Shown here one piece after another: positions 9,026 to 38,517 of a DNA stretch of 64,000 bases. Every line of letters begins with the position of its first letter. The first letter of the stretch is position 1. The stretch lies in IMG/VR virus record IMGVR_UViG_3300046472_000138; one strand, written 5' to 3'. The position numbers were made by a program, and so were the translations under genes. The notes below the pieces were generated by a model. The model was given only the letters and a program-made list of their open reading frames with translations. It was not told where the DNA came from and did not search any database. This stretch comes from an uncultured virus (IMG/VR IMGVR_UViG_3300046472_000138) (lineage: Duplodnaviria > Heunggongvirae > Uroviricota > Caudoviricetes).

Positions 9026-9200
9026 AAAACTTCAATCTCTCAGGACTAGAGTGCAATGAGTGTAGAAATCCAGACATATAGTGGCTATTGTCCTTGGTGT
9101 AAGAAAGTAACAACCATTAGAAAAGAAATTTCAACTTCAGTTGATAAAAAGCCTTATACGACTCGATGCGAAGAATGCCATACATATTGTGGTGGAGGAT

Positions 9201-10154
9201 ATGAAGAGTTTAACCGATCCAGCCCACAAAATTGACAGGAAATTCAAAGCCTTGGATCACTTCCAAACGCATGGCTGGAGCTATCCTCTCTCGGCTGAAA
9301 TTGACCTGACGTGGCGTTGTGCGCTCAACTGTAAAGGTTGCCATAGTAAATGGCTGCATACCGACAAAGAACTCAACCAAGCCGATATTGTGCATATTCT
9401 AGGGGAATTATCGCAACATGGTTGCAAGTCTGTAACCTTCTCAGGAGGCGGCGATCCCCTGGAAAGCCCTCACTGGAAGTATGCAATCCTATCAGCAAAA
9501 CTTTTCGGGATGGATGTTGCTGTTTATTCATATCTTCCCGGCTTTGACCAAGAGAAAGCAGATTATTTAGGAAAGCAATGCCAATTCGTATACACTCACA
9601 GCGTTTCAACGAAAAGAATTAATAAGCCTTCTGGGAAATGTGTTTGGACTTATGGCTATCTACTGGACTCAACGAACTGGCATCAAATACCCGCTCTTAT
9701 TGATAAGGTCGATTTTGATTTCTTCGATTTTGTTGACTTTCGGCCACTCTCCCCAATTAACGCGCCTGATCCTCCAGACATGGACTATTCATGGGTTGCG
9801 CGTGCGGTTGAGGTACTTGAGAATGTCACGGCGCAAGACTCTAAAGTGAAGGCCGCGGATTACAAATTCTATGACCTCCTCAAATCCGATAAGGGTAGGA
9901 ACTACGGATGTTGTTATTCTACCGATTTTACCGCCGTTGTGGGGCCGGATGGGACAATGTACGAATGTATCAATCGAAGAAATGTATCGCCAATCGGAAA
10001 TCTACTCGAAGAAAGCCTTAAAGAAATCTGGGCTAGAAAAAATCATACTAGGGAAGACATGAGCCAATGTCGGATACTTTGCCGTAATCATCAAGCCAAC
10101 AAAACATTATGGCACTTACTTGGTCCTGAACCTCAACACGCGAGTTTTATATAA
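9201..10154 (+). CDS. Radical SAM protein with SPASM/twitch-like C-terminus
   Basis: CALNCKGC, FSGGGDP, DG.MYEC...IGNL.E.SL.EIW...C..LCR. SD GGAGG before 9201. Confidence 0.9.
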   Translation: MKSLTDPAHKIDRKFKALDHFQTHGWSYPLSAEIDLTWRCALNCKGCHSKWLHTDKELNQADIVHILGELSQHGCKSVTFSGGGDPLESPHWKYAILSAKLFGMDVAVYSYLPGFDQEKADYLGKQCQFVYTHSVSTKRINKPSGKCVWTYGYLLDSTNWHQIPALIDKVDFDFFDFVDFRPLSPINAPDPPDMDYSWVARAVEVLENVTAQDSKVKAADYKFYDLLKSDKGRNYGCCYSTDFTAVVGPDGTMYECINRRNVSPIGNLLEESLKEIWARKNHTREDMSQCRILCRNHQANKTLWHLLGPEPQHASFI

Positions 10155-10456: not shown

Positions 10457-10936
10457 ATGTTAGCAACTCAAAGAACAAGAGGTGGTCATTGGGGCAAACC
10501 GTATGCTTTACGAGGACTCCGGCAAGGCTATTGTGACGATCCAGCGAATGCGGCCGAGTGCGGTTGGGTTGATATCCCCGATCAAGTCAGCGGCGGTTAT
10601 TGCGACGATCCAGCCAATGCTGCCGAGTGTAGCTGGACTTATGACACTACGCCTGATCAAACCCTTCCATCCGATAGCGGGAATTCTCAAGTCTGGGCGC
10701 AGATTATCGCCGCGGCGGGAAAGATCGGTACGCAAATCATTAGTGCTGGTTCAACTCAATATCGGACTCCATACGGGACATATTCATACGGGTCAGGTCC
10801 ATACAGCGCATTGAATCCGACTTTGGCGCAACAGTACCTCGCTTCCCGCGTGGGGATGTTCGGCGGGATTTCAACAACTACTTGGCTCTTGATCGGCGGC
10901 GGGTTGCTCTTTGCCGTGATGATGATGAAAAGATGA
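10457..10936 (+). CDS. C-terminally anchored membrane protein with two Cys repeats
   Basis: LRGLR motif, two GYCDDPANAAEC repeats, TM helix ending MMMKR. Confidence 0.8.
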   Translation: MLATQRTRGGHWGKPYALRGLRQGYCDDPANAAECGWVDIPDQVSGGYCDDPANAAECSWTYDTTPDQTLPSDSGNSQVWAQIIAAAGKIGTQIISAGSTQYRTPYGTYSYGSGPYSALNPTLAQQYLASRVGMFGGISTTTWLLIGGGLLFAVMMMKR

Positions 10937-11071
10937 TATGGGGGATCTTAATGAAATCATAGCAGATGAATTTAAAGATGGTAAAAGCATGAGAGTACTT
11001 TCCATTGAACACAATCGCTCACTTGAGGAAATTGAAAAGGCTATCAGAGAAGTAATGATAGAAAGAACAAA

Positions 11072-11809
11072 ATGCCGGTCGTAACACCAACTCAAATTAA
11101 GCGAGTACCAGCAAGGCGTGAAATCTCGCAGCATTACGCTCGGCATATTAGCCCTATGCACAGAATGAGTGGGTTGGGTGACACTCAGGCTTTAGTGGGA
11201 TCAACAGTTGCAGGGGCTTGCGTAGCTGGTGCAATCGCCGCTCCTGGTACGTTTGGAGTTTCAGCGGCATTGACCTGCCTACCTTCAATCATCAAAGCAT
11301 TTCTTGGTTGGTTGACTTGCGGCCCTACTTCGGCCTGCGCGTTAAAAGTTACAGCGACTCAATTTGCCGAAGGGATTGTAAAGCTCTGCTATGGCTTGGA
11401 ACCTGGATGCGCACTTCCACCTGGAGGAATTGCCATTGTTCCTGGTGCAAATCCTCCTAAATTCTGCTCTTATTCTGTTGCCGGATTGATTGAGCGTTGC
11501 GACCTTTACAATGCCAGTATTGTCTTGAATCGGGCGCAATCCTTAATGCAGCAGAAATTGACCGTTACGAGCGATCCTGTTACGCCTTATGTTCAACGCT
11601 GGTATGATCAGTATGGGCCATCAACCTTCAATGACTTAAAATCTCATTTAGCAGCGGCTCAAGCTGTTTGTGGAGCATCGGCAATGCAACCGGGGACAAT
11701 TAATCAATATCCAGGTGGAATCATTCCCACTCCAACAACTAGTTCATATACGCCCTATATCATCCTCGGCGGGATTGGTTTAGTCGGATTGATCTTTATG
11801 ATGAAGTAA
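11072..11809 (+). CDS. Cys-rich membrane protein with basic propeptide-like N-terminus
   Basis: MSGLGD, hydrophobic Ala/Gly segment, C-terminal TM ending MMK. Confidence 0.8.
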   Translation: MPVVTPTQIKRVPARREISQHYARHISPMHRMSGLGDTQALVGSTVAGACVAGAIAAPGTFGVSAALTCLPSIIKAFLGWLTCGPTSACALKVTATQFAEGIVKLCYGLEPGCALPPGGIAIVPGANPPKFCSYSVAGLIERCDLYNASIVLNRAQSLMQQKLTVTSDPVTPYVQRWYDQYGPSTFNDLKSHLAAAQAVCGASAMQPGTINQYPGGIIPTPTTSSYTPYIILGGIGLVGLIFMMK

Positions 11810-11820
11810 AGGAGAACACT

Positions 11821-12042
11821 ATGTTTTTAGCAAAAGGATTAGGCAGAATGGGGAGAATGGGCGACTTTGTAAATCGTTCTCCTGATTACAAGATTGATAA
11901 CTGGATTGGTCAAGTTCCAGGTGGTGCTATGGCTCCAGTTGCCCCTAGCGTGATTCCAGGGGTTAGCAACACGACTGCTGCGGCGGTTGGGATCGGCGGG
12001 TTGGCAGCGGCCGCGGCTCTTGCATACTACCTAATGAAATGA
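11821..12042 (+). CDS. Small membrane protein
   Basis: KGLGRMGRMGD, DNWIGQ, C-terminal TM ending LMK. Confidence 0.8.
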   Translation: MFLAKGLGRMGRMGDFVNRSPDYKIDNWIGQVPGGAMAPVAPSVIPGVSNTTAAAVGIGGLAAAAALAYYLMK

Positions 12043-12684
12043 ATGTACCTTGCACTCGGTTACACACACGGTCAATTCAAGGGACTCCGAGCATTGCGCG
12101 GGAACTATCAGTCGCAGACTCCAGTTCAAGGTTTCACAATTTCGCCTGGAGATGTTGGAATCCGTCAAACATGCGATTTTATTCGGAAACAAATCGACTT
12201 GGGAAAAGCCGATCCATTAGTGCAAGCGACATTCCAACAGATAGCGGCAGAGTCATACGCAAAGGATAAGATCGAATTGAGTAAAGCACTCACCCATTGG
12301 GTTGTTCAGAATATCCGCTATACACCGGACGATGCCATGAGCATGACTGAAGAAGGCTTGCAATGGATCGATATCAAGCAGTGTCCAATAGCCTACAAGC
12401 AATGTGAGGCAGTTGAGATGATTGTTACTCCTCATCAAATCTTACAGAGCAAACAGGGCGACTGCGACGATCTTTGCATGATCTTGGGCGCGTTTCTAGA
12501 ACTCGGCGGGATGCCCGTAAGAATGGTCACAATTGCTGCCGATTCGAGCGATCCTAGCCAGTTCTCACACGTTTATTTGATAGCCAATATCAACGGCACT
12601 TGGATTCCGATTGATGCCGTGAACCATAACAATCCTTGGAATTGGGAAGCTCCGAATTATTACCGCAAGGAGATAATGTGCTGA
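12043..12684 (+). CDS. Transglutaminase-like cysteine protease, candidate virion maturation protease
   Basis: WV..NIRY..D, GDCDD, SHVY, W.PIDA give a Cys-His-Asp triad in transglutaminase order. Confidence 0.82.
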   Translation: MYLALGYTHGQFKGLRALRGNYQSQTPVQGFTISPGDVGIRQTCDFIRKQIDLGKADPLVQATFQQIAAESYAKDKIELSKALTHWVVQNIRYTPDDAMSMTEEGLQWIDIKQCPIAYKQCEAVEMIVTPHQILQSKQGDCDDLCMILGAFLELGGMPVRMVTIAADSSDPSQFSHVYLIANINGTWIPIDAVNHNNPWNWEAPNYYRKEIMC

Positions 12685-12883
12685 CTTGTAAAAGATGTGG
12701 AAACCAATTTAAGCCGGAATGGAAAGAAGGTTATTGCGGAACCTGTCGTTTTCTCTATGGAGTTGAAATGAAATTTGAAGACACTGGATTCCCAATAAAG
12801 GGCAGGGATACAATTACTGAACGCTTAAGAGAAGGGTTTGAATTACTTCGTTCTGGATATGATGAGAAGGTAGAAAGGGAAAT

Positions 12884-13114
12884 GTGTTGAGAGAAGGAAG
12901 CTGGTTTCTTGCCATTGCATATTTCATGACGGCCTTATTGTTTTCTTATGTCTCATTAGATCCCACAACCGCAAAATGGTTTTCAGGACTAATTTTATTA
13001 CCTGCGGTTGCTACTTACGCTCTCGGCCTCAACGAAACGATTAACATGATTTGTAAACCGTTCACGCAAAAAGAAAGTGGATGGGTTGACTATGATCGGA
13101 TAAAAATGGAGTGA
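12884..13114 (+). CDS. Small two-TM protein
   Basis: Hydrophobic; diverged homolog at ~56936-57142. Confidence 0.6.
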   Translation: MLREGSWFLAIAYFMTALLFSYVSLDPTTAKWFSGLILLPAVATYALGLNETINMICKPFTQKESGWVDYDRIKME

Positions 13115-13126
13115 ATAGGAGTCTTT

Positions 13127-13405
13127 ATGGCTTGTTGTGGCGGTAGTACAAAAGGAATCGGACATTTCGGGGCATATCAACCTGTTTCAGCGGCTCAAGT
13201 AATGACAGTGACCGGCGCGGTACAGGGGACTCCAAACGAAACCGGCGGGATGCACACGCAATATGCAGGAGCGCGGAATGTTTCAGGATTAGGCGACCTG
13301 TTCAATTTCCAACCGGCGGCAGGGGACTGGATTTCCGGCGTACCGAATGGGTATATCACAGCGGGTGCGATTGCAATTCTCGTAATGGTCTTAATGAAGA
13401 GGTAA
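13127..13405 (+). CDS. Small membrane protein
   Basis: KGIGHFG and VSGLGD motifs, WISGVPN, TM ending LMKR. Confidence 0.8.
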   Translation: MACCGGSTKGIGHFGAYQPVSAAQVMTVTGAVQGTPNETGGMHTQYAGARNVSGLGDLFNFQPAAGDWISGVPNGYITAGAIAILVMVLMKR

Positions 13406-13408
13406 TTT

Positions 13409-13972
13409 ATGGCAATGTCAGCTTCAGGTGGACAGGTTGTCCAATTTCCTGCTCAAGCAGCCGATACAGCAACAATGTTGCAGAATGATAAAACGAAGCT
13501 AATCTCGCTCGGCTCTCAGATTTCAACCCTTGTCCAGCACTTCAATGACTTGAAACAGCAGTTAATGGCTGCTCCTAGTCCGACGAGAGAGCAATTCGCG
13601 GCCTTGCTTGACCAACGTAAAGCAGCCTTGCAACAACTCATGGATGCCCATCAAGCGGCAATCGCGGATTTGCGACAGAAGGCGACAGCGGCAAACGTAG
13701 CAATCGACATTACTACTCCACCTGTCAACCTTTCTGGACTTGGGCAGCTTGTCGACACGGCGACAATTCAAACGCAGATTACAGACCAGCAATCAAAATT
13801 GACTGCCTTGCAGAACTATTATACATCCTATCAAGCAGCATTAGCGGCAGGCTTACAGCCTCCACCGATGCCAGCGGAACTATCAGGCGGGTTCTTGGGA
13901 ATGAGTGGAACGGCCATTACTATCGGAATTGCGGCTATTGTCGGAGCATTCTTACTTTTTGGAAAGAAATAA
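13409..13972 (+). CDS. Coiled-coil membrane-anchored protein
   Basis: Q/A/L helices, LSGLGQ, TM ending GKK. Confidence 0.8.
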   Translation: MAMSASGGQVVQFPAQAADTATMLQNDKTKLISLGSQISTLVQHFNDLKQQLMAAPSPTREQFAALLDQRKAALQQLMDAHQAAIADLRQKATAANVAIDITTPPVNLSGLGQLVDTATIQTQITDQQSKLTALQNYYTSYQAALAAGLQPPPMPAELSGGFLGMSGTAITIGIAAIVGAFLLFGKK

Positions 13973-14121
13973 TGGCATTCTTTGGGCAAGTCGATCCAGT
14001 CCAACAGCAGATTCAACAGCAAGTACAGGCTGCTACGGATTGGATTAAAAACGTCTTCTGGATTCTGATTATCGTGGCAATTCTTGTCATCATCTTTATG
14101 AGCCTAAGCAGCCATGCGTAG
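13972..14121 (+). CDS. 49-aa membrane protein, not in the ORF track
   Basis: MAFFGQVDPVQQQIQQQ...WILIIVAILVIIFM; same protein at 57984-58133 with synonymous changes. Confidence 0.75.
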   Translation: MAFFGQVDPVQQQIQQQVQAATDWIKNVFWILIIVAILVIIFMSLSSHA

Positions 14122-14311
14122 TGTTACTTTAAAAGATTTAAACGGCGGTCCATTCCTGATCGACGGGAAAAGATATACTGGAATTGTTAAGACCAGTGAT
14201 GGAGATCGAGCTTGGTTGCCAATTGACCCAAGATATGACGATCCTAAAGATTGGCAAGGCATCATTGAGCAACTTGGCAGGCCATTAATAAAGAAGGGAA
14301 TCTTGAGGTAA
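14114..14311 (+). CDS. Hypothetical protein
   Basis: Conserved at 58126-58323. Confidence 0.7.
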   Translation: MRSVTLKDLNGGPFLIDGKRYTGIVKTSDGDRAWLPIDPRYDDPKDWQGIIEQLGRPLIKKGILR

Positions 14312-14314
14312 TTT

Positions 14315-14602
14315 ATGTTTGCATCACAAGCGGCAACACTCGGAAGTTTGAAGCGCGTAGGCCGATTCGGTAGGCTCGGTGATCTAGTTACGATGGACAC
14401 AACCCAGATGATGATTCCGGTTCTCATCCCACAAACTGCAAGCCCAGCGGTCACAGGATTAAATTCAAACTGGCTCATAGCTGGTGGAACAATCCTGGCT
14501 CTTCTCGCTTCTTGGGGATTGTTCGGCTCAAGAGTAGCCAGGGCAAAAGTCAACACTCGCGGACCTCGTAAAGCAAAAGCAGTCAAGGCGGCTAAAAAAT
14601 GA
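14315..14602 (+). CDS. Membrane protein with basic C-terminal tail
   Basis: VGRFGRLGD, TM helix, K/R/A tail. Confidence 0.8.
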   Translation: MFASQAATLGSLKRVGRFGRLGDLVTMDTTQMMIPVLIPQTASPAVTGLNSNWLIAGGTILALLASWGLFGSRVARAKVNTRGPRKAKAVKAAKK

Positions 14603-15006
14603 AAAAGATTCTTGCAGCAATCGCATTATTGTTAGGCTTTTCTTCTCTAGGTCTTGCTCAATTGCCGAGTCAAGTTAAGCAAGTCCTGCCAAATACTCCG
14701 ACTGTCAACTTCTCTTGGGATTACAACACGGCAGATGAAGCGAGCATTGATAGCTTTGTCCTTCAAAGGACAGATTTCGCATCAACAACTACAATTACAA
14801 GTCCTTATAGCACTGAGATTGTCATTACTCAAAAGACGATGAGGACAGCAACCTTCACAATTCCAGCCGGTGTTCTAGCTGGACAAAAAGCATTTTTCCG
14901 TTTAGTAGCTCGAAAGGTTGGGCTAGCTGATAGTGCGCCGTCAAATGTGGTTGAGGTAGATATTGTGCCAACTCCTCCGAGTCCGACAAATTTCAGATTC
15001 CCATGA
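14599..15006 (+). CDS. Secreted Fn3/Ig-like protein
   Basis: Sec signal MKKILAAIALLLGFSSLGLA; FSW...F.L.A...S.PSN.V...P..PTNFR. Confidence 0.72.
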   Translation: MKKILAAIALLLGFSSLGLAQLPSQVKQVLPNTPTVNFSWDYNTADEASIDSFVLQRTDFASTTTITSPYSTEIVITQKTMRTATFTIPAGVLAGQKAFFRLVARKVGLADSAPSNVVEVDIVPTPPSPTNFRFP

Positions 15007-15233
15007 TTCAAATTATTTTCACTTGTGAGCATATAGGATGCAAGGAACTTGAGATTAAAATTGCCAAGAATCCTGAAGATGATGAAAGTTTATTCCCAGA
15101 CAAGCTTCAATGTGTAGGAATTTTCGGAGAAATGAAAATTCTTTGCTCTGATCATGCGAATGAATGGCATCAGGAAAAAATCAATCAACATCAAAAAGAT
15201 CATCCTAATGAGCCGTATGTAGTTTTAAGTTAA

Positions 15234-15599
15234 ATGAAAACCCTGATTCTGATCTTGCTTTTATCAAGCACTCTCTACGCTCAACTTTCTCCACCGACTC
15301 AAACGGTGAAGAAACGGAATGGGCAAGCGGTTACAGTAGCTTGGAATTTCACAGATAACGCAGCATCAGCGGGGTTGCTCTATTTTTCTGTCAAGGCGAC
15401 TCCTAATCTCAATCAAACTCCAACGCAGTTGGTTCAAGTTCCTCCGACTGCAAGGCAGACAGATTTAACGGTAGTCTTCACGGTATCAAATCCAAATAAT
15501 GTCTATTATATTGTGTCAGCTATTTACTCAAATCCAAAAGGCGAATCGTTTCCAAGTAATACCATTGCTGTTCAGAGAATCGGACCTCCTCCTCAATGA
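15234..15599 (+). CDS. Secreted Fn3/Ig-like protein (paralog-like)
   Basis: Signal peptide; VAW...YYIVSA...GES.PSN. Confidence 0.72.
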   Translation: MKTLILILLLSSTLYAQLSPPTQTVKKRNGQAVTVAWNFTDNAASAGLLYFSVKATPNLNQTPTQLVQVPPTARQTDLTVVFTVSNPNNVYYIVSAIYSNPKGESFPSNTIAVQRIGPPPQ

Positions 15600-16033
15600 C
15601 AGACGCGGAATATTGGTCTATTGCAAATGCCTTACCTAAGAGGGTTCTTAATGGAATCTATGTTGTGGATTGGCGCACAAAGATTCCCGGTTGCGATCCA
15701 ACCTTGCAACAAGCTTGTGAGTTTGTGCTTGGCTTTAATCCGCTCTCAGGCTGTTGGATTGATCCAGGGGCGCAATATGTTGCTCGGCCTAGTCCTTACC
15801 CTTCCCCGTCTTCTTGGGGTGTTACGCTTTGCAATGCGCCGATTACGCAACCACCTCCAACTGGAGGGGGGACGACAACTATTCCTCCGAGCGGGGGAAC
15901 GACAGGTGGAGGTGGAGGGACAACGACAACACCTCCAATTACAGCAACTCCTCCATCTTGGCCGGGAATCAACACAACTTTCGTTATGATTGCCATTGCA
16001 GGCGTGGCTCTACTTTTCTTTATGAGGAAATAA
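15596..16033 (+). CDS. Membrane-anchored protein with Cys domain and P/T/G linker
   Basis: PPPTGGGTTT linker, TM ending FMRK. Confidence 0.8.
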   Translation: MTDAEYWSIANALPKRVLNGIYVVDWRTKIPGCDPTLQQACEFVLGFNPLSGCWIDPGAQYVARPSPYPSPSSWGVTLCNAPITQPPPTGGGTTTIPPSGGTTGGGGGTTTTPPITATPPSWPGINTTFVMIAIAGVALLFFMRK

Positions 16034-16034
16034 T

Positions 16035-16298
16035 ATGTTTTTCGACATTAGCGCAAAAGGTTCTTGGAAAGGCTCAAGCGGGTATTGGACTTTTGTTCCG
16101 AATACTCCTGACAACAAAGGGACAGGAACAGAACTGGTCAGCGGTCCACCTCATGCGGTAGCAGATAAAGCAGCCGATGGGCCTTACTATCCTTGCCCTT
16201 GTGATGGGATAACGTATCAGACTTGGCTTGTTCCCGGGCCAACCCATCCGGCCTTGCAACAAATCGTCCGTTGGGATAGTCCGTTGCCAGCATTATGA
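16035..16298 (+). CDS. Hypothetical protein, conserved between copies
   Basis: Nearly identical at 59819-60085. Confidence 0.75.
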   Translation: MFFDISAKGSWKGSSGYWTFVPNTPDNKGTGTELVSGPPHAVADKAADGPYYPCPCDGITYQTWLVPGPTHPALQQIVRWDSPLPAL

Positions 16299-16658
16299 GC
16301 AAAGAAACCTCAAAGCAACTAAATGAATTGTACGATTCAGTCCAAGATAGATTAATGGGAATATTTTGGGATATTGTACAAGAGCGAAGAAACAGAAAAC
16401 CAATTACAATCGAAACCGCTTTGGAAAAATTGAAAGAGAAGGGTTATACGATCATTGAACCTTCAGAACTTGAAAAGATCGGGACTAATGAAACCGAAAA
16501 ACCAGCGGATGGAAGCAATTGAAGAACTAAATAAAGCCTTTTTAAAAGCCGAATCAAGGCATGAGCCTGAGTTTAAATTCGCTGGAAGATTAATTCCAAC
16601 TCGCTATGTGAAGAGTTTCATCGAATGGATGGAGCTTGAAGAAATCGGTAAACTCTAA

Positions 16659-17045
16659 ATGTATCTCGGCGCAACCTGCATCGATCATGGACAGCTAGCA
16701 GCATCATCGGGCGATACTTGTTGCCCGGGCCTTACTCCTTGGGTTTACGATGCCAATAGCGGGACTCCATACCCAATCATGGCTTGCTGGTCTGCGGGAT
16801 GTGCCAGTGCTGGTCAATGGGCCGGTCCTAGTGGGGTAGGAAATCACTGTTGCGCTGGATTGACGAATGTTGGCGGGAAATGTGCAGTTCCAGCAAGTGG
16901 AGGTGGAGGGGGAGGAACGACTTATAATCCTCCTAGTCCGATTTGCGCTGGAACAATCATCTGTTCACTTCCAGATATGGCAATCTACGCAATCGCCGGG
17001 GGATTGGTTCTTATGCTTGTGATGAGTAAAAAGAAGGGCGCATGA
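16659..17045 (+). CDS. Cys-rich (knottin-like spacing) membrane-anchored protein
   Basis: Two C...GQ.A...CC.GL...C units, TM followed by KKK. Confidence 0.78.
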   Translation: MYLGATCIDHGQLAASSGDTCCPGLTPWVYDANSGTPYPIMACWSAGCASAGQWAGPSGVGNHCCAGLTNVGGKCAVPASGGGGGGTTYNPPSPICAGTIICSLPDMAIYAIAGGLVLMLVMSKKKGA

Positions 17046-17219
17046 GATTCTCTGAAATGAAATTGCTGACTAATTATCCAAGAGATATTGAGTATCGAGC
17101 CAAGATAGCTTGTGAATCTAATTGGCGTAAAGATGATTGGAAGCCTGATTTTGATGAACAATTAGCTATCCGTCATCATCGAATGACTATTGCACTGGCG
17201 ATGCCTCAGAGGAAGAATC

Positions 17220-17843
17220 ATGGCCTTTGATTTCTCAACACTTCCAAAAATCAGGACTCATGCAAATCTTGGTTTTCTTGGGGATACAAACCAGGATGCG
17301 GTAGCGTTATTGGAAGATGCTCATTCAGTCGTGATTAGCATGGCAACCGCGGCAAGTGACCTATACAACGATGCTGTTGCAAATGGGGCGCCTCAAGAAG
17401 TGATTGATGCTTTGCAGTCGAGCTACAACGATGCGAGACAACTTGTCACCGATCACGTTGCTATAATGAATGCCTTCTACGCCTCAACAGGAGTCTCTGG
17501 ATTGTCAGGATTAAGTAAAGGCAGGCTCGGCAGTCTAGGTCAATGGCAAGCCTTAGCCTTAGTGCTAGGGGCTGCTCTCCGACAAGTGGCATGGGGCGCA
17601 TTATGGACTTATATTGCCAGCGTAGTTGGAAGGATAGCAGATGCGTTCAAATCCAACACCGATGCGGCACAGGCAAGCCTCAAGGTGTCTGGGGACTATT
17701 ACATACTGTGGAAGCAATGCCAGGAACAAGGGACACAATGTCCTCCACCTCCTCCTGGCTTAGGTAAGAGTGGCGATATGACTACCTATCTCTTAATCGG
17801 AGCAAGCGCATTAGTAGCGGTAATGCTCTTGATGAAAAAATAA
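17220..17843 (+). CDS. Helical membrane protein with multiple GLG-like motifs
   Basis: LGFLGD, VSGLSGLSKGRLGSLGQ, internal hydrophobic helix, TM ending MKK. Confidence 0.8.
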   Translation: MAFDFSTLPKIRTHANLGFLGDTNQDAVALLEDAHSVVISMATAASDLYNDAVANGAPQEVIDALQSSYNDARQLVTDHVAIMNAFYASTGVSGLSGLSKGRLGSLGQWQALALVLGAALRQVAWGALWTYIASVVGRIADAFKSNTDAAQASLKVSGDYYILWKQCQEQGTQCPPPPPGLGKSGDMTTYLLIGASALVAVMLLMKK

Positions 17844-18103
17844 TGTTCAGCGGAATGTGGGTTGATTCAAGATCGGCTTTGAAGGGTTTAGGTGCAACTG
17901 CTCGTTGCTGCGACTTTGCGACAGCAGCAGTTAATTCTAGCGGTCAAGCCTACGATGCAAGCGGATATTGCAATATTGATCCAGCACAAGGCGGAACTTC
18001 TGGACCTTGCGAGAGTCAATGGATTTCAGGCTTCAGCAACTCAACTGTAATGCTAGCAGTTGGTTTGCTTGGATTGATTATGCTTCTCGGAGCAAAGCGA
18101 TAA
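17843..18103 (+). CDS. Small Cys-rich membrane protein
   Basis: LKGLGAT, WISGFSN, TM ending AKR; identical in copy 2. Confidence 0.8.
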   Translation: MFSGMWVDSRSALKGLGATARCCDFATAAVNSSGQAYDASGYCNIDPAQGGTSGPCESQWISGFSNSTVMLAVGLLGLIMLLGAKR

Positions 18104-18369
18104 TGTTTGCCTTTCTTCCAAGCGATTCAAGTTACGATACATGCCCGACTGGTACAGTCTGGAGCGACCTTTCGCAGGATTGCGTAATTTCGGTTGATGT
18201 TGGGAATGGTAGCGGATTGCCAGGAACGGATAGCAACATGATGCTTTATCTCGGACTCGGGCTTGCCGCTTTATTGCTCCTAAGTTTCGCAGGGGGAAGG
18301 GCAAGCAAGAAAACTTCATCAGGATCAAGGTTAGTGAGCAGAACAACTACACGTTCACTTTTTGCATAG
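18103..18369 (+). CDS. Small membrane protein with CPxGxxW...C loop
   Basis: TAATG coupling; TM helix plus basic S/T tail. Confidence 0.75.
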   Translation: MFAFLPSDSSYDTCPTGTVWSDLSQDCVISVDVGNGSGLPGTDSNMMLYLGLGLAALLLLSFAGGRASKKTSSGSRLVSRTTTRSLFA

Positions 18370-19145: not shown

Positions 19146-20045
19146 ATGGCCGGTAAATGGGGCAAGGCAGAAAACAGGGGATGGGGAAAGATGAAGGACA
19201 AGGAAGGTCTTTTTGAAGACCGGCTAAATCAACGGCTTTGCACAGATAAGTATTACACTTATCCATTTTACCCGATCAAACTCTTTCATTCTCAATTGAG
19301 GCGCATCTATTCAGAAGCAACGATGCGGGTAAGAGTCGTTAATGGTGATTACCTTGTTTATGCTTGCCGAAGATCCTCGCGGCTCTTAGCTCTCTGGGAA
19401 AAGATGGTTGGTCCTAAGATGGCCTATTGCAATCGATTGCGCGAATTGATCGAGGTTCATTCTATTTTACCTCCACACCTCAGCACATTCAATGGCGCGG
19501 AAGCAAACCCCAAGCTAGAAGAAGCCATGAAAGGCTATTCACACTTTCACGGTTCAGCACCAGACAAGATTTCAACAGATTCCTATGATTGGCCTCCACC
19601 TCTTGAGTTAGAAGATGAATTCGGGCCTTTCGATCCACAAGCACCGATTGACCTGATTGGACTCGGTGAATTGCTTGGCTTAGGTTATGAGCCGGTTGAC
19701 AGTGAACCGCTAGAAAGGGAAGTCATCAAATTCAAACGACCTTATCCACTCCTGGCATCTGATTACATCAATTATGAAGAAGGCGAAGAGGAATTGTTTG
19801 TTGTGGGCGGTCATTACAAAGAGAAACCTGAAGAGGACTTTGTTTGCGGGAACCTTCGATGGGTGACTTATCTCACTGTAAAATCATTTGACGACCTCAA
19901 GCCAATCGAATATACCCATGAGTTTAATGAACCTTACCCGCAGTTGTGTACCAACAAGAAAGGGACGCAGTATTACATTTTCAGGGGCGACAGTGAATTT
20001 TCAATCGGACGAGGGCATCCAGTCAGTGCGGGGATTGAGGGATGA
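19146..20045 (+). CDS. Conserved unknown protein: basic N-terminus, ANP, then an acidic internally duplicated domain
   Basis: Y.HFHG..P; GEL..LGY...YPLL...LFVVGG and GNL..VTY...YPQL...YYIFRG. Confidence 0.8.
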   Translation: MAGKWGKAENRGWGKMKDKEGLFEDRLNQRLCTDKYYTYPFYPIKLFHSQLRRIYSEATMRVRVVNGDYLVYACRRSSRLLALWEKMVGPKMAYCNRLRELIEVHSILPPHLSTFNGAEANPKLEEAMKGYSHFHGSAPDKISTDSYDWPPPLELEDEFGPFDPQAPIDLIGLGELLGLGYEPVDSEPLEREVIKFKRPYPLLASDYINYEEGEEELFVVGGHYKEKPEEDFVCGNLRWVTYLTVKSFDDLKPIEYTHEFNEPYPQLCTNKKGTQYYIFRGDSEFSIGRGHPVSAGIEG

Positions 20046-21139: not shown

Positions 21140-22792
21140 ATGTGGCAACCAGTCAGAGTCGTGAATCCGTACAATCCGAGAGCGAGAAGGAGATACTCAA
21201 CAAGAGAAGGTGCGCCTTGGGCAAGAGGAGAAGGAAGAACAAAGAGCAGCATATTTTCAACTTCTTATAGGCCAGCAAGAAAATCCGTTGCACGACATTC
21301 ACGCGCTCATTCTCCAAAAGTAAAATCATGGTTGCCTAGTATGTTCAATAGCCCAAGACGGAGAAAGCGCAATCAAGACCTCATCACCGGCGCAGTGGCA
21401 AGCAAGATAGCCGATCAGGTGGCAGGGAAACTCGGCGGGATGTTTAGCAAGCCAAGGAAGAGGAAGGCGGCAAGTCATAAGAAACGGAATGTGAGAGCGT
21501 ACAAACGCTTTTTCACATTTGAGGGCGAACCACAACGTACCGCCGCCGGTAGCGCGGCAAGAATGTGGACCTACAAGGATAAACCGACAGCTATTGGACG
21601 ATCAATTCGCCGTCACAAAAAGAAAGCAAAGAAACGCGGCATATTTTCAAATCCAGCTTTAGCAGTGATCGGACTGAATCCACTACGAAAACGAAGAAGA
21701 TTTAAGACGCATGAGGGAAAGGGAAGAGTTCACAGGAAACCAGGAACCTTCACAGATGCCATTGAGCGGCATGAGCGGAAACGCAGGAAGAAAAGCAATG
21801 TGAGGGCGCGGAGAAGGTATACATCAAGAATAGGTTTATCCCACGCACCAGGAGGGACTAGAACTATTCGATATCGTAGAGAATATGCTCCTTCCTCATA
21901 TCTTTCCTCGACAGGTAAAAGTATTGAAAGACATATTAAGAGACGTAAGAAAAAATCATCAGGTCTTTTCAGCAGCAATCCAAAACGGAGGGTTACTATG
22001 GCAACACGTAGGCGAAGAAAGCGGAATCTTCCGCGGAGGAATGCAAAGGGAAGATTCGTAAAGAAATCCAACACACGAAGACGAAGACGGTCTAATCCAG
22101 TTGTCCGAAGGCGGCGGCGGCATACTCGCACAACGCTACGCCGGAGGCGACGACGTACTAACCCAGTGCGAGTAACCAGACGGAGAAGGAGAGCACCAAT
22201 GGCACATCGTAGGCGCAGACGGAGAGCAAATCCGGTAGTACGGCGCAGACGGCGCAGAACACACGCAACAACGCATCGTCGTCGTCGCCGAAGTAATCCA
22301 GTTCGGGCAAGACATTATCGAAGACACAACCGCAGTCGGCGTGGCCGTCGGCGTAATGCAATGCTCGGCGGGACATTGAGCCGAATTGATTGGAAGTCAG
22401 TATTGTTTGTTTCAGGGGGTGTGTTCCTCGGAGACAAATTGACTGGCTTGGTCAGCGACAAAATCATGACTATGACCAGCATGATTCCATCAAGCGCGGG
22501 ACCGTGGGTTAAATTGGCTGTCGGAGTATTGGCGGCTGGCTTGGCCTGGAAATATCAACCGGCTTTCGGGCTTGGAATCGCAGTCGGAGCAACAAATTCC
22601 TTGATGAACCAATATGTTTTCGGTCCAGCATGGGGTTATGTTGCACCATCAATCGGGATGTCTGGCTTGGCTGACTACCAGAATCGGGCATTCAAGCAAG
22701 ATAACTGGATCGGTCAAAGCTCAGGGGGTCCAGGGGCAGCAGGCACAATGAGTGGATTCGGGATGAATCCATTGCTTCAAAATCGGCTGTAA
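21140..22792 (+). CDS. Protamine-like Arg/Lys-rich protein with N-P punctuation and C-terminal membrane domain; candidate genome-condensing core protein
   Basis: Repeated RRRRR[S/T/A]NPV units; hydrophobic helices after RRNAMLGG; MSGLAD and MSGFG. Confidence 0.8.
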   Translation: MWQPVRVVNPYNPRARRRYSTREGAPWARGEGRTKSSIFSTSYRPARKSVARHSRAHSPKVKSWLPSMFNSPRRRKRNQDLITGAVASKIADQVAGKLGGMFSKPRKRKAASHKKRNVRAYKRFFTFEGEPQRTAAGSAARMWTYKDKPTAIGRSIRRHKKKAKKRGIFSNPALAVIGLNPLRKRRRFKTHEGKGRVHRKPGTFTDAIERHERKRRKKSNVRARRRYTSRIGLSHAPGGTRTIRYRREYAPSSYLSSTGKSIERHIKRRKKKSSGLFSSNPKRRVTMATRRRRKRNLPRRNAKGRFVKKSNTRRRRRSNPVVRRRRRHTRTTLRRRRRRTNPVRVTRRRRRAPMAHRRRRRRANPVVRRRRRRTHATTHRRRRRSNPVRARHYRRHNRSRRGRRRNAMLGGTLSRIDWKSVLFVSGGVFLGDKLTGLVSDKIMTMTSMIPSSAGPWVKLAVGVLAAGLAWKYQPAFGLGIAVGATNSLMNQYVFGPAWGYVAPSIGMSGLADYQNRAFKQDNWIGQSSGGPGAAGTMSGFGMNPLLQNRL

Positions 22793-22933: not shown

Positions 22934-23671
22934 ATGCAAATCATCAGGAAATTCAGAAACATCATTGAAGATGTCTTAGGCGTGCGTTTCAACGCTCGGC
23001 TGACAGACCTCGAATACCGAAAACACGGGAAACCAATTTCACATTTCGATTCATTGGCCGGGGAAGGGCAAGTCACTTTCCATGACGCAATGGACATGGG
23101 CAAGACAAACCCAACCTATACCGGCGTAGTTGAAGCGATTGACCGGCCTTTGTTCGATACCACGTTTATCGTATCAGGCACAACCACCGGGCAATTGCTT
23201 TTCACGGCTCCACAAGGCACAAACAGCAAATCACAGCTTGACACTAATTTGACTCAATCCAGGTCTTTGCCTTCGCCTGAGAGTTTCACCATCAAGCGAA
23301 TCGGCTATCAGATTCAGACAACCTCACTGCTCGACATGGGCAAGATTCAAAATCTGATTTTGCAGAGCTTCTTTGCAAACCAGAAATTGTATTCCCAAGC
23401 CCCATTGGTCTACTACCCTGTAGGCTTCGGGGTGTACGGTTGCACGACAGAATCAAACATTTCAGCAATCACAAGCGGTATCCCTGGAGAAAACGGGGTC
23501 AGGTCACTAGTCTATGACATTCCGTTGAATCCTCTCGATCCGTTCTACGCACAGCTTGACGTTTACGGCGGCGGATCATCGGCGGCACATACCATCTCAA
23601 CTTTGACTTTGACCACAACCACGACTCAAATCGTGGTCTATTTGCAAGGTCCATACCAGAGAGCAATCTAG
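22934..23671 (+). CDS. Candidate major capsid protein, single jelly-roll-like
   Basis: Beta-rich PLFDT...LF..PQG..KS..DTNL....LP.P.SF.I core; strong SD GAGGAG; downstream terminator; follows the core-protein gene. Fold is inferred. Confidence 0.55.
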   Translation: MQIIRKFRNIIEDVLGVRFNARLTDLEYRKHGKPISHFDSLAGEGQVTFHDAMDMGKTNPTYTGVVEAIDRPLFDTTFIVSGTTTGQLLFTAPQGTNSKSQLDTNLTQSRSLPSPESFTIKRIGYQIQTTSLLDMGKIQNLILQSFFANQKLYSQAPLVYYPVGFGVYGCTTESNISAITSGIPGENGVRSLVYDIPLNPLDPFYAQLDVYGGGSSAAHTISTLTLTTTTTQIVVYLQGPYQRAI

Positions 23672-23746: not shown

Positions 23747-24160
23747 GTGTTGGCAAACGATCTTGTAGGACAGAAGGGGTTATTTAATTTCGTAGGCACG
23801 ATCACGCTTGCGGGCAACGCATTTGGAAACGTGATCATGCAGGTCAATCAAGGGTTAGATTACAAAGTAGTTTGTATCCAGACAGTTCAAACCGGAGTGT
23901 GGAAAGTTATCTGGGGAACAAACACGATCAACTTCATGGCAAGCGGTCAGCAGAATGCCACGACTCCACCTTATTGCACATATTCAAATGTCTTCGGGAC
24001 TGCTATACTCCCGCATCGGTATGTTGGGCCTGGATATGACTATGCGCCAATCTTCCCGCGTGGGTCGAATATGGTATTCAATTGTCAGGACACAAGCGGC
24101 TCTACCAATACGATTGAAATTGTAGTTGAAGGCATTTACGATAACTGGCTAGGTCAATAA
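23747..24160 (+). CDS. Small beta-sandwich (jelly-roll-like) structural protein
   Basis: Alternating hydrophobic strands; P..PRGS.M.F...D.SG..N.IEIVVEG end. Confidence 0.55.
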   Translation: MLANDLVGQKGLFNFVGTITLAGNAFGNVIMQVNQGLDYKVVCIQTVQTGVWKVIWGTNTINFMASGQQNATTPPYCTYSNVFGTAILPHRYVGPGYDYAPIFPRGSNMVFNCQDTSGSTNTIEIVVEGIYDNWLGQ

Positions 24161-24162: not shown

Positions 24163-25257
24163 ATGATCGGTGCAGATAGAGCAGCGCGGGGCATTACCTC
24201 TCTTCAATCCTCGCATCCTTTTCATATCCCTTTTAACTTTGCCACAATTACAACAGGCACAGAGCAAACCTTCCGAGTGGCTGTCAATCAAGGAGATATG
24301 CTTGTCTTTGGTTTGGCGATTTGGGATTCAGATTCCACAACTCAACAACTCGGCGCACAGAATACAAGCCAGTATTGGGTGAAGATCACCAATCGAGAAT
24401 ACAATCAATCATTAATGTCAACTTGGGTTGCTGGTCTTGGGATTCTTGAGACAGACGCACAGAGCGGCGGGTTTAGATTCCCTTCCCCCTGGTTTGTCAG
24501 GAATGGGACTTACCTCGATGTTACGGTAAGGTGTCCCGGCCAAAACGAGTTAAAGAATACTTCAGCAACTTATACGATTACTGCGCTGGAAATCGTTTTA
24601 CTTGCTCAGGTATTTCCGAGAGGCTATGAAAAGGAATTCGGCAGGAAAGCACCGATTAAGCAACCGTTCTTTTTGTCCTATATGGCTCCAATCGGTTTTC
24701 AGGCCGATACAACAACCGGGAATAACATCGTAACAACGACAGGCTCACAGCAACTCTATCCGGCGTTTCAAGCCTCTTGGCCTCCGTTGATGTGGGATTT
24801 TGAATTGACAAGTATTTCGATGGATTCCTCGACGCTTCAAACAACCAACCCGGCAGGATCGGGGACAGGCTACCCGGCCAATCTTCATATGCTTCAGGTG
24901 ATCGAGCGGAAATCTAAACGAATGGCTTTCCGTGGCCCTTGCACGCAAGCCAATGTTGCAGGGTCAAGAGTGCAGGATGCCTGTGATGCTTATGCCTTGA
25001 GTGCCGTTCCGACTGGACTCAATCCAACAGATGCCTATACGCACAATTTGGCCGTTCCGTTCTATTGTAAGAAGGGCTCACAGCTAACAGCCAAGGCGAG
25101 CTTTAATTGGGTTTACATCAATGATGCTGGAATTAGCTTTCAACCATCGAATGTGAATCAAGTTGTGAACGTCGTTCTCATGGGTAATAAATTCGAGAAT
25201 CCAGATCGATTTCCAGGTACAGGTCCATTTAGTCAACCTCCGACTTATGCCACTTAG
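24163..25257 (+). CDS. Structural protein with two tandem beta-sandwich repeats
   Basis: FPSPWFVRNGTYLDV...EIVLLA is paralleled by LAVPFYCKKGSQLTA...NVVLMG. Confidence 0.55.
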   Translation: MIGADRAARGITSLQSSHPFHIPFNFATITTGTEQTFRVAVNQGDMLVFGLAIWDSDSTTQQLGAQNTSQYWVKITNREYNQSLMSTWVAGLGILETDAQSGGFRFPSPWFVRNGTYLDVTVRCPGQNELKNTSATYTITALEIVLLAQVFPRGYEKEFGRKAPIKQPFFLSYMAPIGFQADTTTGNNIVTTTGSQQLYPAFQASWPPLMWDFELTSISMDSSTLQTTNPAGSGTGYPANLHMLQVIERKSKRMAFRGPCTQANVAGSRVQDACDAYALSAVPTGLNPTDAYTHNLAVPFYCKKGSQLTAKASFNWVYINDAGISFQPSNVNQVVNVVLMGNKFENPDRFPGTGPFSQPPTYAT

Positions 25258-32400: not shown

Positions 32401-33429
32401 ATGCCATTCAAGTTGCACACAATTATAATATCCGTCCTGCTCTCGCTAGGGGGTTACTTTGGCAACCTTGCCGATGCTCAAACTATAAGTGTAGCCAAAG
32501 GGACTGCAATTGATACAATTGCAAAGGGAATCGCCCTACTCACTCCTGGGGGAACACTAATTGTTAATTCAGGCTCTTATGCCGAAGTCATTGGAAACAT
32601 CCCTTCTGGAACGTCAGATTCACTTAGGACAACGATTCAAGCCAATGGTGCGGTCATCTGCAATGGAATTGATGTTTATAGCCGGAATTACATCACAGTC
32701 AGGGGATTCACGTTTAACGGTTACACAAACCGCATAGGCCGATCCAGTGAAACGAATGCGCCTAGCACCTATATCACATTTGAGAACTGCACTGCCCAGA
32801 ATTGGGGAGGGGGAGGATCAGGCGGCGGCGGATTCATGCCGGGATTCAGGCAATACGGAGTCAGTTGCTTTATCCGACTCATTAACTGCTCGGCACACGG
32901 TAATGGAAGTACGAGCCTCGATCATGGGGTATACGTCTCAGGCCGTGACATTACAGTCCAAGGGGGTAGTTTTTACGGCAATTCAGGTCATGGAATCCAG
33001 GTCTTCGCATCTGCCGGGGCTGGTTCAACGAATAATTCCATAGTCCAGGGTGTAGATGCTCACGATAACGGATCCTTCGGGATTGGGCTTTATTCAGGCG
33101 TAAACCTTCGGGCAATTGGAAACAAGGTTTATAATAATGGGAAGACTATCTCCGGCTCAGGTCAACTCAGAATCGACTATGGAGCTATTTCGGCAGTGGT
33201 TCAAAACAATGACATTTGCGGGGCAAATCCTATTGTTGACAATGGAACAAATACCCAGAAGTCTAACAATACTTGCGGGGGTGTAGTGATTCCTCCAACT
33301 CCATTGCCTCCTGTCACAGTTCCTCCGCCATCAAATTTAAATACTCCTCCCGCGGCTAGTTCTGGAATTTCTCCGATGGTCCTAGCAGCTGGAGCGGGGT
33401 TTTTGTTATTGATTATGTCAGGCGAGTAA
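32401..33429 (+). CDS. Beta-helix protein with N-terminal signal and C-terminal TM anchor
   Basis: HG.Y...N.GHGI...HDN..GI repeats; Pro linker followed by TM. Confidence 0.75.
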   Translation: MPFKLHTIIISVLLSLGGYFGNLADAQTISVAKGTAIDTIAKGIALLTPGGTLIVNSGSYAEVIGNIPSGTSDSLRTTIQANGAVICNGIDVYSRNYITVRGFTFNGYTNRIGRSSETNAPSTYITFENCTAQNWGGGGSGGGGFMPGFRQYGVSCFIRLINCSAHGNGSTSLDHGVYVSGRDITVQGGSFYGNSGHGIQVFASAGAGSTNNSIVQGVDAHDNGSFGIGLYSGVNLRAIGNKVYNNGKTISGSGQLRIDYGAISAVVQNNDICGANPIVDNGTNTQKSNNTCGGVVIPPTPLPPVTVPPPSNLNTPPAASSGISPMVLAAGAGFLLLIMSGE

Positions 33430-35947: not shown

Positions 35948-36030
35948 TATTTAGCTGAAATCGATTTATGAGTATCCATACTTTTGAAATTGAGTTTTGA
36001 TAATCTATTAGCGACAAATTATTGTCAATC

Positions 36031-36864: not shown

Positions 36865-36887
36865 TTAAAGACCTTCGTTTTTGAGAA

Positions 36888-38420: not shown

Positions 38421-38517
38421 GTCAGCTAGATCGAATCAAAGAAACAAGCACACCGATGATAAGGATCAGAAACACTACTCCAATCGCGGCAACATCAAAA
38501 TAAAAGTTGGTTGGCAT

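Follow-up and report, generated by a model that had tools for sequence, protein, structure and literature searches.

A protamine-like protein ending in a predicted helical domain, encoded beside a predicted double jelly-roll capsid gene: a candidate genome-condensing core protein of an uncultured virus

Introduction

What would a virus do with a protein of 550 residues in which arginine and lysine dominate the first 400? Protein-condensed viral genomes are found in adenoviruses, baculoviruses and some archaeal viruses, and to our knowledge the icosahedral dsDNA viruses of bacteria are thought to hold naked DNA that is pumped in by an ATPase. The gene in question lies in a stretch of 64,000 nucleotides from an uncultured virus (IMG/VR record IMGVR_UViG_3300046472_000138), which was analysed as a whole and is called the window here. 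A preliminary description of the gene, made from the letters of the DNA, had called its product a protamine-like polyprotein punctuated by Asn-Pro and fused to a membrane domain. The unit of the element is about 44 kb, and the window reaches into what may be a second tandem copy or an assembly join; the basic gene of that copy would lie beyond base 64000.

Results

Composition, family and selection

The extreme content of basic residues that had been described over about 400 residues was borne out, with 26.3% arginine, 9.2% lysine and 3.2% aspartate plus glutamate in residues 1-400, and the protein as a whole carries a net charge of +137. In residues 287-406 arginine and lysine make up 52% (58 R and 4 K per 120 residues) and acidic residues do not occur. 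We took protamine-like to mean more than 40% Arg/Lys in blocks, a near-absence of acidic residues and conservation of the charge in preference to the sequence, and the protein is protamine-like in this sense, as judged from residues 287-406, from the basic parts of the 17 family members (27-51% R+K) and from switches between codon families. The mixture of CGN and AGR arginine codons was also seen correctly, because all six codons are used (AGA 34, CGG 22, AGG 15, CGA 15, CGC 13, CGT 13).

A homolog search of 1.84 billion representatives returned 16 matches at E<=1e-3, 14 of which were judged to be true members, and the set was enlarged by P0001 and by the loci L001-L005. The family is rare, unannotated and found in metagenomes only; 17 members were examined. 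Pfam gave no meaningful match for 16 family members and placed the window protein in no family at E<=0.01. No match was found in GenBank phages by tblastn with either the basic protein or the 364-aa protein encoded downstream of it, and scans of IMG/VR confirmed no relative. Scans of species-representative genomes confirmed no relative either and yielded no host.

Compared with the homolog in L001, 38 of the 48 aligned Arg-Arg pairs differ in codon and 17 of the 48 swap CGN and AGR, and the dN/dS of the C-terminal domain is 0.10. A non-coding or repeat artefact is ruled out by these two results. As judged from the sequences, the basic gene is under purifying selection, and is real and selected at the protein level.

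Three modules

The label polyprotein could not be kept. The protein consists of three modules (Table 1) without separate enzymes, and a stand-alone N-terminal module was not found among proteins of 30-301 aa. Module A contains short conserved hydrophobic islands, namely an N-terminal W-x-x-[IV]-R-V-x-NPY, a helix-like stretch at residues 79-102 (NQDLITGAVASKIADQVAGKLGGMF) and NP-ALAVIG-LNP at residues 171-181, as well as repeats of the form KSIxRHxK...G[IL]FxxNP; it is shared with the long homologs P0001, P0004, P0005, P0013, L003 and L004.

Module B begins with a conserved Met-Ala and an RNAKGRFVK motif and ends at the junction Asn406. The junction Asn is present in all 17 members, 20-23 residues N-terminal to the G..xG[DGS]K motif of the C-terminal domain. 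The three tandem units within module B follow the pattern P-V-x-R(5-6)-short neutral linker-R(5-6)-x-N, and the NP sites 319, 341, 364 and 386 of the window protein are retained in L001. A GGAG-type motif stands 6-7 nt 5' of the conserved ATG of Met287 in all four DNAs compared. A comparable motif precedes merely 8 of the 33 window genes, and Arg/Lys codons easily produce it, so the hint of an internal start is weak; initiation at Met287 is a possible lead from the sequence.

Module C was modelled with AF2 from 18 sequences at low confidence (pLDDT 55.2, pTM 0.34). Its predicted helices (418-445, 451-472 and 474-501) each carry a small-xxx-small motif; the tail behind them is unstructured, yet conserved (Y513, R516, D521, W523, G539). 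The residues G427, G431, K433, G462, G479 and G483 are invariant in the alignment. The domain that had been described as hydrophobic and helical is predicted to be helical but is only moderately hydrophobic. The module is rich in Gly and Ala, and over 19 residues its Kyte-Doolittle mean reaches at most 1.38, where 1.6 is the usual mark of a transmembrane helix, so that we infer a membrane domain here and do not observe one. A complex prediction of this domain with the 364-aa protein scored 0.00, which is below the mark and counts neither for nor against an interaction.

Table 1. Features of the basic gene and of its neighbours in the window
Feature	Position	Strand	Basis
Transglutaminase-like (papain-fold) protein	12043..12684	+	Pfam DUF553 3.6e-9, Transglut_core 3e-6
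Protamine-like protein with C-terminal helical domain	21140..22792	+	Whole ORF, 550 aa plus stop
Module A, residues 1-286, moderately basic (R+K 29%)	21140..21997	+	Alignments
Possible internal start: GGAGG, then in-frame ATG (Met287) 6 nt on	21987..22000	+	Motif
Module B, hyperbasic core, residues 287-406	21998..22357	+	Composition, alignments
Three tandem 22-23-aa units, residues 320-341, 342-364, 365-386	22097..22297	+	Sequence reading
Module C, Gly/Ala-rich domain, residues 407-550	22358..22789	+	AF2, alignment
245-aa protein, directly downstream of the basic gene	22934..23671	+	Synteny
137-aa beta-rich protein, conserved downstream	23747..24160	+	Present in L001, L002, L004, L005
364-aa double jelly-roll protein, likely major capsid protein	24163..25257	+	AF2, Foldseek, VIA-align

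The Asn/Pro pattern

All of the motifs quoted in the preliminary description were found in the protein: VNPYNP (8-13), KRNV (115-118), FSNP (168-172), LNP (179-181), KSNV (218-221), SSNP (278-281), RSNPV, RTNPV, RANPV and RSNPV (within 317-388) and RRNA (404-407), as well as MLGG (408-411). The regular punctuation that had been read from them holds only for the three tandem units, and the NP sites are irregular elsewhere. The dipeptide is nevertheless strongly enriched. The 406-aa basic part contains 9 NP where 1.0 would be expected, a count of at least 9 was reached in none of 2000 shuffles, and the enrichment has p<=0.001 in 11 of the 17 members. Across the family 79 of 203 Asn residues precede Pro, and others precede A (24), R (23), V (18) and T (17); NP[RK][RK] is the form most common in the family.

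Arg/Lys runs obey a directional grammar in which Asn closes a run and Pro opens one. In 14 members, Asn stands right after 64 of 174 runs of at least three basic residues (37% against 8% expected) and Pro right before 43 of them (25% against 6%). A hydrophobic stretch often lies between the Asn and the Pro, in linkers such as N-TLAA-P and N-VAAV-NP, which means that the two residues mark opposite ends of a linker and not a single fixed site. NP itself is dispensable, because it is absent from the 135 basic residues of P0014 and occurs once in P0003. To the earlier question whether homologs upstream of related capsid genes keep the NP punctuation, the answer is that the Asn/Pro pattern is conserved, but the spacing of NP is kept only among close relatives. 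N-glycosylation sequons were considered and dropped, since the Asn sites, inspected by eye, are mostly N-P or N-x followed by a residue other than S or T.

Capsid-type neighbours and packaging genes

In all five related loci the same capsid-type genes come immediately after the basic gene. Its most conserved neighbour is the 245-aa protein, whose homolog follows it in 5/5 loci with an identity of 38-71%. Atlas gave weak leads from this protein to the PM2 P2 and PRD1 P3 families (scores 0.75-0.77); no PDB or profile match was obtained (best PDB sequence E 0.22), and its profile found nothing in the family of the 364-aa protein (hhalign E 0.66).

The best AF2 model of the 364-aa protein is a middling one (pLDDT 61.2, pTM 0.63; 44-51 for the other four). 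Foldseek placed PR772 and PRD1 P3 at the top of its matches (E about 3e-7), and VIA-align gave Z 12.2 for the STIV major capsid protein (rmsd 4.0, 242 aa), 9.8 for PRD1 P3, 9.4 for FLiP and 9.1 for PM2 P2. Cellular double jelly rolls score as high as the viral proteins (DUF2961 Z 12.5, PHM 11.1), so the double jelly-roll fold seen in this middling model is one that cellular enzymes share with capsid proteins. On this model the protein is likely the major capsid protein, and the element looks like a membrane-containing double jelly-roll virus. The element encodes many tail-anchored membrane proteins; at least seven small proteins carry a hydrophobic anchor at the C-terminus with K/R after it. 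Judging by its SLT, DnaD-like, RecT and Mom genes, the host would be bacterial.

The transglutaminase-like protein, with the motifs GDCDD...SHVYL...PIDAV, is the element's one candidate protease. Also encoded are an SLT transglycosylase, fibre-like beta-helix proteins and two conserved acidic proteins nearby, of 532 aa (net charge -17) and 299 aa (net charge -10). A PDB sequence search gave nothing useful for the transglutaminase-like or the 299-aa protein.

Packaging machinery was sought by several routes. No terminase, portal or packaging ATPase was found among 101 ORF translations compared with Pfam or among 81 compared with PHROGs, and the Walker A pattern [AG]xxxxGK[ST] is absent from every frame of at least 80 codons. 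Real ORFs match a GxGK[ST]-like pattern only in the SAM motif of a methyltransferase and in a PPPPGLGKS linker. By motif scan, Pfam and PHROGs alike, no Walker A packaging ATPase of the FtsK/HerA type was found.

Discussion

Because the basic gene sits just upstream of the jelly-roll capsid genes, a genome-condensing core protein is probable, and the conserved protamine-like composition, the synteny in 5/5 loci and the capsid context make a genome binder tethered to the membrane or the capsid the best reading. We therefore lean, with some reserve, towards a virion-internal protein that neutralises the genome of an undescribed membrane-containing double jelly-roll virus, a reading that draws on composition, conservation, the run grammar, synteny and the fold of the neighbour. 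We infer that the protein binds DNA, is located in the virion and is anchored to a membrane, and what its Asn and Pro residues do. It also speaks for a core protein that the sequence searches found no other protein of the element to package the DNA. On the other side, known DNA-binding families gave no Pfam match to 16 members, and the C-domain model has a pLDDT of 55 and a hydrophobicity under the transmembrane threshold. The capsid context itself depends on a single middling model (pLDDT 61), to which cellular double jelly-roll enzymes score equally.

If the protein is a core protein, its roughly 400 residues of Arg/Lys blocks (net about +133) would bind and condense the approximately 44 kb of dsDNA non-specifically, for which protamines and adenovirus VII/mu are precedents. 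About 320 copies would neutralise half of the phosphates. The C-terminal domain, with three predicted Gly-rich helices of the GxxxG type and a conserved tail, may hold the protein, together with the DNA, at the internal membrane or at the inner face of the capsid. Asn and Pro would be mainly structural: Asn would shut each Arg block and Pro start the next, like helix or turn caps (compare the SPKK-type turns), splitting the polycation into units the size of a DNA turn. The Asn/Pro pattern fits such capping. However, the invariance of the junction Asn in 17/17 members exceeds the need of a cap, and there a processing site would fit equally well.

Such processing had been proposed before, as a second cleavage code. 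On this view the chain is a precursor that would be cleaved behind its Asn residues, through Asn cyclisation at Asn-Pro or through a viral protease such as the transglutaminase-like protein, and this would free mu-like Arg peptides of 22-23 residues and, at Asn406, the membrane domain. Arg runs do end in Asn (64/174) with a variable following residue, as they would at a site defined by P1, the position of the junction Asn is the same in every member, the units of residues 320-386 are mu-like in size with two Arg blocks apiece, and the element encodes a papain-fold protein. Asn-Pro autocleavage is also real chemistry in bacteria and viruses, but the known sites occur once in a protein, at a turn within a folded domain (PMC10328401), and are not repeated along a low-complexity polycation. 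Cutting linkers of the N-TALAAV-NP type would yield useless hydrophobic heptapeptides, and NP is missing from P0014 and almost missing from P0003. MLGG invites comparison with the adenain site, whose consensus we take to be (M/I/L)XGG-X or (M/I/L)XGX-G. Such a site is not conserved, since an adenain-like [MIL]xGG lies at the junction in just 1/17 members and the 101 ORFs contain no adenain-type or Asn-specific protease family and no match of the Peptidase_C5 type. Taken together, we regard cleavage as unlikely.

The Gly-zipper helices might instead insert into or remodel a host or viral membrane at entry while the polycation escorts the genome, as in a DNA-delivery (pilot) protein. This would suit the small-xxx-small motifs with invariant Gly in all three predicted helices, the fusion of a polycation to a domain that looks membrane-active, and the availability of the SLT transglycosylase and fibre-like proteins for entry. 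However, the +137 net charge of each chain and the tandem protamine-like units far exceed the needs of a pilot, and no homology to known ejection proteins was found. We give this role little credence, although it is compatible with the core-protein reading. A function away from the virion DNA, such as condensation of the host nucleoid or RNA, shut-off, membrane permeabilisation, or a chaperone or scaffold for acidic partners in assembly, appears very improbable. Arg-rich peptides bind RNA and perturb membranes, and the two acidic proteins are conserved nearby; but the gene is fixed at the head of the capsid block in 5/5 loci, its orientation and spacing are those of structural genes, and so toxic a polycation would do less harm at a late stage of infection and in complex with DNA.

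The favoured core protein is probably of a kind undescribed for bacterial viruses. No account of such a giant protamine-like protein was found in the phage literature searched, and the words "DNA-binding", "condens" and "nucleoprotein" are all absent from a 2019 review of membrane phages. A conserved protamine-like array of 400 residues with a putative membrane- or capsid-anchoring domain, in an element where no Walker-A protein was found, would make capsid filling driven by condensation directly testable as an alternative route, and the Asn...Pro grammar is a clean, unexplained rule for partitioning a polycation. A bolder version is a motor-less double jelly-roll membrane phage in which a giant protamine anchored in the membrane gathers the genome onto the vesicle by condensation, the shell assembles around it and cuts at Asn then release mu-like peptides of 22-23 residues. 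We hold this to be quite improbable; if true, it would mean an adenovirus-like core of independent origin in a phage and a new Asn-based maturation code.

Comparison with known systems

NPTH of FlhB/YscU is an Asn-Pro autoproteolytic site. In RsgI, the periplasmic domain is reported to cleave itself at one NP, which lies in a turn joining beta strands within a fold and has conserved neighbours, and reovirus mu1 and Asn42 of aquareovirus VP5 are cited as further cases (PMC10328401). The window protein has the same dipeptide, but as 9 NP in a basic, low-complexity polycation that looks disordered, and Pfam matched no autoproteolytic domain. In the SPKK or SPK(K/R) motifs of sperm histones, a small polar residue and Pro form a turn before basic residues, and many copies of the unit line a tail that compacts DNA (PMC9903204). 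The polar-Pro-basic unit is common to both; here Asn replaces Ser/Thr, so a phosphorylation switch is absent, the Arg runs are much longer and the turn is putative.

With PRD1, PM2, STIV and FLiP the element would share the capsid fold, going by the model of the 364-aa neighbour, and it has many small membrane proteins. According to a review, dsDNA members of the membrane double jelly-roll group employ a packaging ATPase, for example P9 of PRD1 (PMC6356626), whereas a Walker-A protein was not found in the element. SSIP-1 (43,788 bp) has a similar unit size but, unlike the element, encodes two Walker-A proteins and lacks an Arg-rich one, and was rejected as a relative (best tblastn E 0.02).

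The J protein of Microviridae binds the genome through its basic N-terminal part and, through a hydrophobic C-terminal part, docks it to the interior of the shell; J has fewer than 40 aa, the genome is ssDNA and the capsid contains no membrane. Compared by description alone, its basic-plus-hydrophobic layout is that of the window protein, which is far longer. Fish protamine and baculovirus P6.9 consist of runs of 4-6 Arg broken by P, S, T or V, with acidic residues nearly absent. Their broken Arg runs and few acidic residues recur in the window protein, which is tenfold longer, ends its Arg runs with Asn and not Ser/Pro, has extra N- and C-terminal modules and, like the family members, gave no match to Pfam protamine (related work on P6.9: PMC5899202, PMC6669607).

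The adenovirus core offers another comparison. Several small proteins make up that core, and the window encodes one chain of 550 aa with a hydrophobic helical domain, in an element whose host is bacterial by gene content and where neither an adenain-type protease nor a conserved adenain-like site was found; adenovirus core Pfam models matched none of 16 members at E<=1. Adenovirus VII/mu carry Arg blocks with short neutral linkers and condense dsDNA inside a double jelly-roll capsid, their precursors being trimmed at maturation. The window protein resembles them in both the Arg blocks with short neutral linkers and the predicted double jelly-roll capsid context (related work on adenovirus core proteins: PMC7998265, PMC5491326, PMC10548178).

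Results

The Arg/Lys-rich reading frame with Asn-Pro (NP) punctuation reported in the preliminary description was borne out, and every motif listed there was found in the 550-aa translation. Residues 1-400 contain 26% Arg, 9% Lys and 3% acidic residues, and in residues 287-406 there are 58 Arg and 4 Lys among 120 positions and no Asp or Glu. The net charge of the whole chain is +137. The basic part, of 406 residues, carries 9 NP where 1.0 would be expected, and none of 2000 shuffles contained 9 or more. Regular punctuation is confined to a tandem array of three units, each 22-23 residues long (320-341, 342-364 and 365-386) and made up of two blocks of 5-6 Arg flanking a short neutral linker. 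The C-terminal 144 residues are Gly/Ala-rich and moderately hydrophobic (best 19-residue Kyte-Doolittle mean, 1.38). The mixed Arg codons were also confirmed, as all six are used 13 to 34 times apiece. In an alignment of 266 codons with L001, the closest DNA relative, dN/dS of the C-terminal domain was 0.10, and the Asn of NP sites was kept at 7 of 8 aligned positions. Among the 48 conserved Arg of the basic part, 38 have a different codon and 17 have switched between the CGN and AGR families; this switching shows that selection is for arginine itself rather than for a nucleotide repeat.

Among 5.8 billion clusters, a word-indexed search recovered a single full-length relative (P0001, 619 aa). 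With the C-terminal domain as query, exhaustive HMMER searching of 1.84 billion representatives returned 16 proteins at E<=1e-3. We accepted 14 of them (P0002-P0014 and P0017) and excluded P0015 (4225 aa), where the match fell in low-complexity sequence, and P0016, a repeat protein that is not related. Five related loci (L001-L005) came from a metagenome scan. No relative was confirmed in GenBank phages, IMG/VR or species-representative genomes, and no Pfam family matched any of the 16 members scanned. Long forms consist of three modules (see table). Several database entries begin at the conserved Met-Ala; the frame of L001 is open 5' of it, with homologous sequence, which means that some of them at least are truncated calls. 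Met287 may also be an internal start, yielding a short form of modules B and C. A stand-alone N-terminal module was not found among the shorter proteins. In all four DNAs compared (window, 21987-22000; L001, L003 and L004), the codon of this conserved internal Met is preceded at 6-7 nt by a GGAG-type motif; only 8 of 33 window genes carry one before the start.

Features of the window and modules of the basic protein
Feature	Position	Strand	Remarks
Basic gene	21140-22792	+	550 aa
Module A	residues 1-286		long forms; moderately basic, short conserved hydrophobic islands
Module B	residues 287-406		long forms; hyperbasic, opens with conserved Met-Ala and R-N/D-x-K-G-R-F motif
Module C	residues 407-550		long forms; Gly-rich domain
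532-aa protein	2009-3607		Glu/Asp/Lys-rich; long charged coiled-coil-looking middle; net charge -17
B12-radical-SAM	7407-8750
SPASM radical-SAM	9141-10154
Small anchor-tailed proteins	ORFs at 10457, 11072, 13409, 15596, 16659, 17190, 32401
299-aa acidic protein	19146-20045		net charge -10; no known family; upstream of basic gene
DNA hypermodification and recombination block	35390-46513	-	also holds RecT, DnaD-like loader, serine invertase
Radical-SAM protein of this block	36031-36864	-
C5 methylase	37572-38420	-
TET-associated glycosyltransferase	40807-41766	-
Mom-like protein	45447-46148	-

The NP punctuation, which the preliminary description proposed to check in homologs, is enriched (p<=0.001) in 11 of 17 sequences, several of them closely related, so that these are not 17 independent tests. 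The threshold was missed by P0003, P0007, P0008, P0009, P0011 and P0014; the basic parts of some are very short, and P0014 has no NP in 135 basic residues. Pro follows 79 of the 203 Asn in all 17 sequences pooled. We counted residues around runs of at least three Arg/Lys in 14 sequences; P0002 nearly duplicates L001 and was omitted, as were P0007 and P0009, whose basic parts are short. Asn stands right after 64 of 174 runs (37%, 8% expected) and Pro right before 43 of 174 (25%, 6% expected). By these counts the rule is broader than NP itself and directional, with Asn after runs and Pro before them, and the linkers take the forms N-P, NP-VL-NP, N-TLAA-P and N-VAAV-NP. All 17 members have a junction [R/K/H][R/K/H]-Asn exactly 20-23 residues before the C-domain motif G..xG[DGS]K. 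A Gly-Gly pair follows the junction Asn in nine, and the adenain-like [MIL]xGG occurs in the window protein only (1/17).

Five beta-rich proteins (245, 137, 364, 224 and 146 aa) are encoded downstream. The 364-aa model (8 sequences) reached pLDDT 61.2 and pTM 0.63, and the remaining four were poorer. Its top Foldseek matches were the P3 capsid proteins of PR772 and PRD1 (E about 3e-7), followed by peptidylglycine monooxygenase and the major capsid proteins (MCP) of iridovirus and STIV. VIA-align gave STIV MCP Z 12.2 (rmsd 4.0, 242 residues), PRD1 P3 9.8, FLiP 9.4 and PM2 P2 9.1, but cellular double jelly rolls scored equally (DUF2961 12.5, PHM 11.1). The Atlas gave weak leads (0.75-0.79) to the PM2 P2 and PRD1 P3 families. 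A 245-aa homolog directly follows the basic gene in all five related loci. The 364-aa homolog was found by tblastn in L001 and L002 and not, at E<=1e-4, in L004 or L005, where a 303-aa ORF in its place aligns at 25% identity. In identical form, the 364-aa protein is on record for 20 contigs, of which the longest has 86,288 bases. L004 has two paralogous small beta-rich proteins (4897-5748; 136 and 118 aa) compared with one (137 aa) in the window, and two beta-helix/fibre genes are in swapped order.

A unit of ~44 kb is present in the window as two tandem, diverged copies with identical gene order (1-20012 aligns to 44060-64000 in blocks that are 79-92% identical in nucleotides); therefore, one whole unit is visible (1-44059). 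The copies could be a true tandem pair or an assembler join of two strains. Genes for replication and DNA modification resemble those of phages. Searches of 101 ORF translations against Pfam and of 81 against PHROGs detected no terminase, portal, HK97-type capsid or packaging ATPase, and no real ORF of the full unit has a Walker A motif or encodes a P-loop protein; these absences are unusual in a dsDNA virus that has a double jelly-roll protein. At least seven small proteins (10457-18369 and 32401-33429) end in a hydrophobic segment, in most followed by Lys/Arg; some are Cys-rich (16659-17045) or have Pro/Thr-rich stalks. On either side of the ones encoded before the basic gene lie three GT2 glycosyltransferases, two or three radical-SAM enzymes and a transglutaminase-like protein. 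These small proteins may be post-translationally modified virion membrane proteins. The 299-aa protein, kept upstream of the basic gene in L004 (47% identity) and without a PDB match, could be a partner, chaperone or protease. The 532-aa protein, with no family match and in a region of strong AT skew, may be a scaffold.

Discussion

The simplest account is that the basic protein is a core protein of a membrane-containing particle, in which its Arg/Lys part would neutralise and condense the genome while the C-terminal domain would hold it to the membrane or shell. The interpretation in the preliminary description is supported in part. By calculation, about 320 copies would offset half of the 88,000 phosphate charges that a genome of 44 kb carries. 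AF2 predicted three helices in the C-domain with low confidence (418-445, 451-472 and 474-501; pLDDT 55), each with invariant Gly in small-xxx-small spacing, followed by a conserved unstructured tail.

The proposal that the protein is cut at Asn into short mu-like peptides seems less likely to us. An Asn of P1 type before a variable residue, the invariant junction Asn and the mu-sized units all fit cleavage. Asn-Pro autocleavage is documented in RsgI, reovirus mu1 and aquareovirus VP5 (PMC10328401), but those sites occur once per protein, in turns of folded domains. Cleavage at several linkers of the basic protein would release pointless fragments, some members can do without NP, and no suitable protease family was recognised, except for the uncharacterised transglutaminase-like protein. 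We read the Asn...Pro grammar as mainly structural. Helices often have Asn as their C-cap and Pro in their first turn. The NP[RK][RK] of this family is similar to SPK(K/R), a turn motif found in sperm histones (PMC9903204).

Within the limited literature searched, we found no report of a bacterial virus with a protamine-like core protein, and the words 'DNA-binding', 'condens' and 'nucleoprotein' are absent from a 2019 review of membrane-containing phages. The 43.8 kb membrane phage SSIP-1 is unrelated; it has Walker-A proteins and lacks an Arg-rich protein. The basic protein does not belong with adenovirus VII/mu, with protamines or with the J protein of microviruses: it is matched by no family model, and both the adenain site and the protease are missing. 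In the function proposed here, however, it would work much as these proteins do.
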